64,000 bases of DNA from an uncultured Parachlamydiaceae bacterium (lineage in GTDB: Bacteria; Chlamydiota; Chlamydiia; Chlamydiales; Parachlamydiaceae), in contig CAVULX010000003.1 in NCBI GenBank assembly GCA_963742415.1, positions 736,001 to 800,000 of the forward strand, given 5' to 3'. The notes under the pieces were generated by a model. That model saw nothing but the letters and a program-made list of their open reading frames with translations, searched no databases and had not been told where the DNA came from. A program made the translations under genes and the position numbers. Numbering within the stretch: the first letter of the stretch is position 1; each line of letters starts with the position of its first letter. This document shows positions 19,359 to 19,647 of the stretch, piece after piece.

Positions 19359-19647
19359 TCTATCGCCGCTACCGCGGCTTTATATTTATTTGGCGATTAC
19401 CCCACGTTCCAGCCTGCGCTTCGCGCATGGCTTTCACGCGGGGCTCCCCACTCACCTCCCTTCCGGGAGGTTTTGACATTTACCGTAGAGTTATAAAAAT
19501 ATTCTTATTTGAATTGGATAAAGAACCTGCTGGAACCTCCCGGAAGGGAGGTGAGTGGGGAGCCCCGCGTGAAAGCCATGCGCGAAGCGCAGGCTGGAAC
19601 GTGGGGTAATCGCCAAATAAATACAAAGCCGCGGCAGCGGCGATAGA
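19359..19647. repeat. Long inverted repeat: 114-bp arms (19359-19472 and 19534-19647, 2 mismatches) around a 61-bp spacer
   Basis: Direct base comparison; mismatches at 19371/19635 and 19382/19624; arms ~60% GC (68/114), spacer ~30% GC (18/61). Confidence 0.97.

Follow-up and report, generated by a model that had tools for sequence, protein, structure and literature searches.

Between the genes tpsB and tpsA of an uncultured Parachlamydiaceae bacterium lies a long and nearly perfect inverted repeat, which raises the question whether this palindrome belongs to the adhesin locus as a regulatory device or has been inserted there as a copy of an element that is also present elsewhere. A preliminary description of this DNA had proposed three readings, namely (a) a REPIN/BIME-like doublet or MITE, (b) a dsRNA/RNase III processing element setting the TpsB:TpsA ratio and (c) the arms of an invertible switch controlling the adhesin. 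Here, the window, meaning the whole stretch of 64,000 nucleotides that was analysed, was compared with its source genome (G000; 2.69 Mb in 4 contigs, whose positions are given below with the prefix C) and with related genomes.

A repeat search of the window returned two arms of 114 nt each, which are 98% complementary and separated by 61 nt. This confirms the arm length, the two mismatches and the AT-rich spacer given in the preliminary description. The features of the locus are:

10657..19212, minus strand: tpsA, coding for a 2851-aa exoprotein with an N-terminal TPS domain
19359..19472, minus strand: left arm, the second copy of the repeat unit, with its sense strand on minus
19473..19533, no strand assigned: spacer of 61 nt, AT-rich and asymmetric
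19534..19647, plus strand: right arm, a single repeat unit whose structure-forming ('sense') strand is plus, containing three hairpins
19535-19552, plus strand: P1 hairpin of the right arm, with a 4-nt loop
about 19556-19615, plus strand: P2, the long hairpin of the right arm (3-nt loop; internal loop symmetric)
19628-19641, plus strand: P3 hairpin of the right arm, with a 4-nt loop
19648..19675, plus strand: extra flank module outside the right arm, common to one other copy (C4:1268209-1268236)
19705..21423, minus strand: tpsB, coding for an Omp85/ShlB-type transporter with ShlB and POTRA_2 matches

The domain matches bear out the earlier naming of both flanking genes. Read along the minus strand, the doublet begins 57 nt past the stop codon of tpsB, and the start codon of tpsA follows 146 nt past the doublet. 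The GC content of the arms is 0.596 and 0.614, whereas the spacer has 0.295 and the intergenic flanks 0.274/0.386, in agreement with the earlier statement of arms of about 60% GC within AT-rich intergenic DNA. The two mismatches between the arms are located at 19371/19635 and 19382/19624, where A stands opposite C on the plus strand. Within the minus-strand RNA both turn into U·G pairs, and the doublet is predicted to fold into an unbroken helix of -271.1 kcal/mol (z = -29.5; none of 100 shuffles is as good), in comparison to -263.9 kcal/mol with two single mismatches for the plus-strand RNA. The wobble pairing and the unbroken duplex had been described correctly, though they rest on two sites. 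Folded as DNA, the right arm alone reaches -35.1 kcal/mol (z = -6.9). The two arms are arranged head-to-head, both P1 ends pointing toward the spacer. The borders of the unit are sharp at window positions 19357/19359 and 19647, and by eye neither a target-site duplication nor a direct repeat is present at the borders of the window copy.

The repeat unit is dispersed through the source genome. A BLAST search with one arm, followed by an nhmmer profile, revealed 27 matches, 16 of them near full length and 11 partial. Many dispersed copies had been named beforehand as the finding that would speak against a regulator specific to this locus, and this is the situation encountered. The copies occur as singlets, inverted doublets and arrays, such as:

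C3:499885 and C4:340246: singlets
C4:1268659/1268839, C4:1333219/1333392 and C4:1021472/1021596: the other tight head-to-head doublets
C4:1268237/448/659: a direct triple with a 211-nt period

Including the window there are four tight head-to-head doublets, whose spacers are asymmetric and homologous to each other. Two further inverted pairs are wider, and the one at C4:643393/643972 surrounds a ~97-nt tandem array. The spacer of the window matches the spacers of the other head-to-head doublets as well as the P1-adjacent sequence of some singlets, with matches extending into it from C4:1268659-1268951, C4:1333219-1333505, C4:643922-644085 and C3:499885-500025. Since homologous sequence accompanies these other copies, the spacer is regarded as part of the element. 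On the tail side at least three classes of flank modules recur; for the module outside the right arm, the match spans window positions 19534-19675 at 90.8%. Inside inverted pairs the identity is 93.9-100% (mean 98.1), and between loci it is 91.5% on average. The window pair is the most diverged from the others; its left arm is 98.2% identical to the right arm and 80-90% identical to the remaining copies of the genome. The copies are extragenic with respect to long or Pfam-supported ORFs. Their neighbours code for unrelated proteins such as aconitase, F-box/WD40 paralogues, a glycosyltransferase, PCMT and an M1 peptidase, among others, and no conserved neighbouring gene was found, the flanking proteins of 12 loci being unrelated barring local paralogue pairs.

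Some copies adjoin other repeated or mobile sequences. At C2:113487-115716 (L047:4988-7217), an IS607-type serine transposase with a MerR HTH and a resolvase domain is preceded, at a distance of about 370 nt, by a truncated unit and followed by a 392-aa ORF, probably tnpB. This IS607-type element, at C2:113.9 kb, lies beside the truncated unit, is not bounded by units and may have cut the adjoining one. Furthermore, short runs of a repeat with a 9-nt period and the motif GTCCAT directly adjoin units at C4:485800-485970 and C2:113440-113490. A tandem repeat abutting the singlet C4:340246 (C4:339800-340230; L045:4599-5030) gives rise to a spurious 142-aa ORF with an internally repeated peptide.

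Structurally, the unit has a length of about 114 nt (114-145 nt across genomes) and consists of three hairpins followed by a short purine-rich tail. P1 is formed by a 6-7-bp stem with a 4-nt loop, P2 by a long stem that is interrupted by a symmetric internal loop and closed by a 3-nt loop, and P3, which is joined via an A-rich linker, by a 5-bp stem with a 4-nt loop. Diverged homologues were detected by BLAST in 4 of 40 related genomes. Across 22 sequences, compensatory changes are present in all three helices and affect 10 of the 21 predicted pairs. A degenerate pattern comprising the P2 base and the P3 loop was run over GTDB genomes and found at least 118 stretches, and 80 loci from other genomes were fetched and searched with a covariance model of the unit, R1. 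This model is matched in all 80 loci, with 140 matches in total, 136 of which span the whole model. Within the resulting alignment, which was fitted to the model and whose members were found by a pattern that already specified the P3 loop and parts of P2, 97.3% of the cells pair and 16 of 21 pairs have changed on both sides; none of 500 shuffles matches the observed values, and slid controls fall to 31-55% paired. P1 and the variable part of P2, both unconstrained by the pattern, hold most of the double changes. Among the 2880 cells, 206 are G·T and 19 are A·C, so that a single strand, the 'sense' strand, is selected to fold. For the window itself, R1 scores 132.5 bits for the right arm at 19527-19653(+) and 135.6 bits for the left arm at 19353-19479(-).

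The pattern matches listed come from MAGs of Chlamydiae in nearly all cases; non-chlamydial by deposit, among these matches listed, are three MAGs assigned to Berkiella, Berkiellales or Gammaproteobacteria and one assigned to Verrucomicrobia. Full-length units are carried by L058, L099, L100 and L102, from MAGs deposited as Berkiellales, Berkiella sp. and Gammaproteobacteria, and at L102 five units lie within 1.5 kb. The genomes reached via L102 (G044) and L099 (G045) hold at least 11 and at least 30 matches, respectively. Copy numbers in five genomes amount to at least 123, 150, 32, 11 and 30, and these are floors, since 150 candidates were scored per genome. The distribution is patchy: within a sample of 141 genomes of the phylum, with 24 candidates scored per genome, 10 genomes from 9 of 82 genera match at E <= 1e-6, and R1 matched none of the 26 genomes that represent a family with genomes of ~1 Mb. 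Concerning the arrangement, a single unit is present in 26 of the 80 fetched loci. The 57 adjacent pairs comprise 33 tail-to-tail, 21 head-to-head, as in the window, and 3 direct ones, so that 54 of 57 are inverted.

A partner gene becomes visible in the relatives. The best-scoring units of G041 and G042 lie about 460-530 nt apart, in inverted orientation, around a 150-aa ORF that matches Pfam Y1_Tnp, an IS200-like HUH tyrosine transposase. Searching 27 Y1 loci with R1 (26 from five genomes and the one of the source genome) revealed strong units on both sides of the gene in six cases (L181, L184, L179, L180, L177 and L052). Here, the geometry is fixed: a unit in sense orientation lies upstream with its tail toward the start codon, and an inverted unit lies downstream at the stop codon or overlapping it. 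The gaps or overlaps between unit and ORF end measure 1-69 nt at L181, L179, L180 and L184 as well as at L205 and L206, which together with L208 represent further flanked Y1 genes from three more genomes, two of them in other chlamydial families. Two flanked RAYTs each are found in G042 and G043. At L178, from a MAG deposited as Gammaproteobacteria (G044), units are present upstream only. Weak R1 matches were obtained at L186, L187 and L189 and matches distant from the gene at L190, L199 and L201, and near the Y1 gene no R1 unit was detected at 14 of the 27 loci.

A tree of 17 Y1 proteins, from which rows of <100 aa or >200 aa were omitted and which has two long branches elsewhere, places the six strongly flanked RAYTs in one clade with 100/98 support. 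The unit-adjacent RAYT of G044 belongs to the same clade, the gammaproteobacterial-deposited Y1 protein forming its deepest branch. The units around the RAYT genes are tail-proximal, in contrast to the head-to-head doublet of the window. Inverted units set closely around a RAYT gene are characteristic of both REPIN-RAYT and TIRtron-TIRYT systems. Because the unit is the cognate repeat around a clade of IS200-like Y1 (HUH) transposases, it is expected to work like the repeats of REP/REPIN-RAYT or TIRtron/TIRYT systems.

In the source genome, one Y1 gene was identified, both with the Pfam model and with the RAYT protein of G041 (39% identity). A RAYT flanked by the family of the window was not found in this assembly, the completeness of which is estimated at 84%, so that a second RAYT may have been missed. 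In the Y1 gene (L052:1434-1911; C4 about 1304374-1304851), a 25-nt tandem duplication (L052:1478-1527) interrupts the coding sequence: a stop follows the first 26 codons, and the remainder lies in another frame. Due to this duplication and frameshift, the RAYT of this genome is probably not active. On both sides the gene is bordered by a 96-nt inverted repeat of different sequence, termed family-2, which is more abundant than the family of the window (88 BLAST pieces, roughly 40 inverted-doublet loci, for example C3:35938-36192, C4:172890-173421 and C4:1304259-1304948, some with internal tandem arrays). Since R1 matches the family-2 flanks of the Y1 gene over its full length, with 39.5 and 34.7 bits, family-2 is considered a diverged sister with the same architecture. 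With no RAYT of its own found in the genome and a resident RAYT that is probably inactive, the family of the window looks like a small, diverged and decaying, possibly fossil, population.

Taken together, the inverted repeat between tpsB and tpsA is interpreted as a head-to-head doublet of a non-autonomous mobile unit, REPIN/TIRtron-like and cognate to a clade of Y1-type RAYTs, and this reading is given a probability of about 80%. Option (a) of the preliminary description thereby gains support, as the unit is dispersed, inverted doublets are its usual form and unit-flanked RAYTs are present in relatives. On this reading, the palindrome is an inserted genomic parasite and not a purpose-built adhesin switch. 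Neither an excision or insertion event nor a target-site signature nor a presence/absence difference between members of one species was observed. Mechanistically, a RAYT would recognise the hairpins on single-stranded DNA and copy or move units or doublets, and one such RAYT-driven event would have put the doublet between tpsB and tpsA. Selection or repair at the level of the hairpin, which has been reported for REPINs, would keep the arms 98% alike.

The alternative that survives best is that the unit is a gene for a structured non-coding RNA, present in many copies, or that its RNA acts as a partner of the transposase; the doublet would then be two convergent or divergent RNA genes, and DNA mobility would be secondary. 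The deep covariation, which involves all three helices and extends across phyla, would suit an RNA function equally well, and so would the GNRA-like 4-nt loops, the tandem G·A motifs in P2 variants and a pronounced strand bias. The sense orientation folds better than the antisense one (-59.3 vs -47.1 kcal/mol), and the excess of G·T over A·C cells in the R1 alignment likewise means that one strand folds. On the antisense strand, T runs follow the P1 and P3 hairpins and resemble terminators. Y1 transposases, as known from IS200/IS605, read hairpins on one DNA strand, which explains the strand bias as well. Furthermore, an RNA gene would not be expected to occur in more than 100 copies in some genomes and in none in most, to be inverted in nearly all adjacent pairs or to abut and overlap the start and stop codons of RAYT genes on both sides. 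Rfam 15 gave no family at its gathering score for window positions 18500-20500 (E <= 1); the matches are miRNA-precursor models alone, with 27-46 bits vs gathering scores of 90-113 bits, and are generic long-hairpin noise. A conserved promoter was likewise not identified: by eye, nothing convincing for sigma-70 or sigma-54 is present in the conserved flank modules. An RNA gene as the primary nature of the unit is thus considered unlikely.

Less probable still is a regulator that is specific to the tps operon, either as an RNase III site that sets the TpsB:TpsA ratio or as an invertible switch that flips a promoter-like spacer. The suggestive location between the two genes and the unbroken 114-bp duplex of the minus-strand transcript fit to this idea, as does a promoter-like TTGACA-16-AAAAAT on the plus strand of the 61-nt spacer with 10 of 12 matches. 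A further promoter-like site is located on the minus strand at 19323-19295, between the doublet and tpsA. Nevertheless, such sites are not enriched, with 3 found vs 1.7 ± 1.3 in shuffles, and a like doublet with a homologous spacer is present at unrelated loci. No transposase or recombinase domain was found in the scanned ORFs of >=80 aa from 2517 to 35421, in line with the earlier statement that none is nearby.

The orthologous locus of another genus of the same family (G005) also argues against a regulator of the operon. A tpsB match at E <= 1e-30 exists in just 1 of the 40 other sampled genomes. In G005, tpsB has 52% identity and tpsA 57% over 464 aa. The orthologous tpsB-tpsA junction measures 41 nt, and R1 detects no unit there even with filters off. 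Because this orthologous junction is compact and lacks the unit, the 492 nt between tpsB and tpsA in the window are best explained by an insertion that opened up a once compact operon junction. Its exact point is not definable, since the intergenic DNA of both genomes cannot be aligned. The invertible switch of option (c) accordingly finds no support.

Even as an insertion, the doublet may influence the genes next to it, and effects on tpsA expression are possible. A read-through RNA would carry the ~114-bp duplex, likely both a target for RNase III and a barrier. Just past tpsB, the P3 hairpin is followed by a T-rich run and resembles a weak terminator, due to which tpsA would probably rely partly on its own promoter. 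The dsRNA/RNase III element of option (b) may hence be conceived as a possible side effect of the insertion.

Two further observations were made in the window. A 2712-aa ORF (2517-10655, minus strand) begins one base past the stop codon of tpsA in a different frame; it shows 31-49% identity to C-terminal parts of TpsA and no Pfam match, and may represent another exoprotein or cassette, or else continue tpsA after a frameshift. In addition, an RHS-repeat protein (26285-28942, plus strand) is followed by a protein of the Imm53 immunity family (29248-29670, plus strand), a pair reminiscent of a polymorphic toxin/immunity module.

That the second arm is a fold-back assembly artefact and absent from the real DNA is hardly credible: chimeric reads can yield perfect long palindromes, but there are 2 differences between these arms, the asymmetric spacer has homologues in the spacers of three other doublets of the same assembly, and the 21 head-to-head and 33 tail-to-tail doublets stem from independent assemblies of other projects. 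A cut-and-paste DDE-type MITE was also considered and rejected, with no direct repeat at the borders and a Y1 transposase as the partner gene.

As an explanation of the palindrome in the window, the result is largely deflationary. For the tps locus it means that the repeat should not be read as an adhesin switch, and that the insertion may uncouple tpsA from tpsB. Beyond this locus, a repeat family and its cognate RAYT clade are defined in environmental Chlamydiae, where copy numbers ranging from about 10 to >150 provide a usable system for asking what RAYTs recognise, whether REPIN-like populations decay after the loss of their RAYT, for which the source genome looks like a case, and whether such repeats move horizontally among amoeba symbionts. 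Furthermore, the covariance model allows annotators to mask units that mimic regulatory palindromes and create spurious ORFs. Within the full-text literature outside subscription journals, no description of such repeats or of this RAYT clade was found for Parachlamydiaceae, Protochlamydia or Berkiella. A bolder proposal, which we hold only tentatively and consider rather doubtful, is that the units form an undescribed class of 'giant' RAYT-associated elements, a three-hairpin module of ~115-145 nt whose structure is preserved on one strand in environmental Chlamydiae and in Berkiella-like Gammaproteobacteria, which have amoebal hosts in common. If true, this would imply a transfer of the RAYT-repeat system between phyla, in contrast to the mostly vertical inheritance of REPIN-RAYT systems, and a role of the module beyond that of one transposase-binding hairpin, for example as an RNA controlling or guiding its RAYT.

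Among the known systems, elements of the Correia/ERIC type are palindromic intergenic insertions of 100-300 bp that create RNase III-sensitive duplexes, terminators or promoters as side effects. The doublet of the window resembles them as a palindromic insertion between co-transcribed genes; they differ from it in their short TIRs, their target duplications and the lack of any connection with Y1 transposases. For IS200/IS605, the Y1 transposase acts on strand-specific subterminal hairpins, and neither terminal inverted repeats nor target duplications are needed. The missing target duplication at the window copy is in line with this, whereas the ends of these insertion sequences are different hairpins on one strand and the flanks of the gene described here are inverted copies of one unit. 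The BIMEs of enterobacteria are mosaics of alternating REPs with defined linkers. Units in alternating orientation, head-head and tail-tail linkers that are each distinct and conserved, and more than one flank module (three classes in the source genome) are shared with them; the sequences are unrelated and the unit of the window is much larger.

A closer resemblance exists to TIRtrons and TIRYTs. In main-text passages of Di Nocera et al. (2013; PMC3733652), these are RAYT-like genes between long TIRs, and the TIRs make up repeat families of moderate abundance that occur singly, as dimers and in clusters. The TIRs abut or overlap the ends of the ORF, as the units do in relatives of the source genome, and partial self-complementarity is described for some of them. 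Differences are that the GGGGWSAS motif of PMC3733652 is by eye not matched exactly in the unit of the window and that a conserved three-hairpin covariation is not described for TIRs in those main-text passages. No chlamydial example is named in those passages, and Parachlamydia, Protochlamydia, Simkania and Waddlia are absent from the main text.

REPIN-RAYT systems of Pseudomonas and E. coli combine REP doublets with REP-associated tyrosine transposases, as presented in parts of PMC3116915 and PMC5581495. These systems are mostly vertically inherited according to the abstract of bioRxiv 2022.05.22.493013. The unit of the window departs from them in its size, since ~114-145 nt and three covarying hairpins stand against 20-40 nt and one hairpin for a REP, which makes it three to five times as long as a classical REP. 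A conserved GTAG or CGTC tag is lacking as well; GTAG is confined to the P3 loop of some copies, and no tag is located at the hairpin foot. In addition, several flanked RAYTs are present in some genomes, and the family occurs in genomes deposited under two phyla. REPINs are described, in the corresponding sections of PMC3116915, as inverted doublets that form hairpins, are better conserved than singlets, carry compensatory changes and are arranged in ordered clusters. The family of the window has in common with REPIN-RAYT systems that it is extragenic and usually takes the form of an inverted doublet with a spacer and a long hairpin, that doublets exceed singlets in conservation, that compensatory changes and ordered clusters occur, that a Y1/HUH gene is flanked by the repeats, here in relatives of the source genome, and that the distribution is patchy. 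The kind of system is already known; what is unusual is the three-hairpin unit of 114-145 nt, its deep structural conservation and its presence in Chlamydiae and Berkiella-like MAGs.
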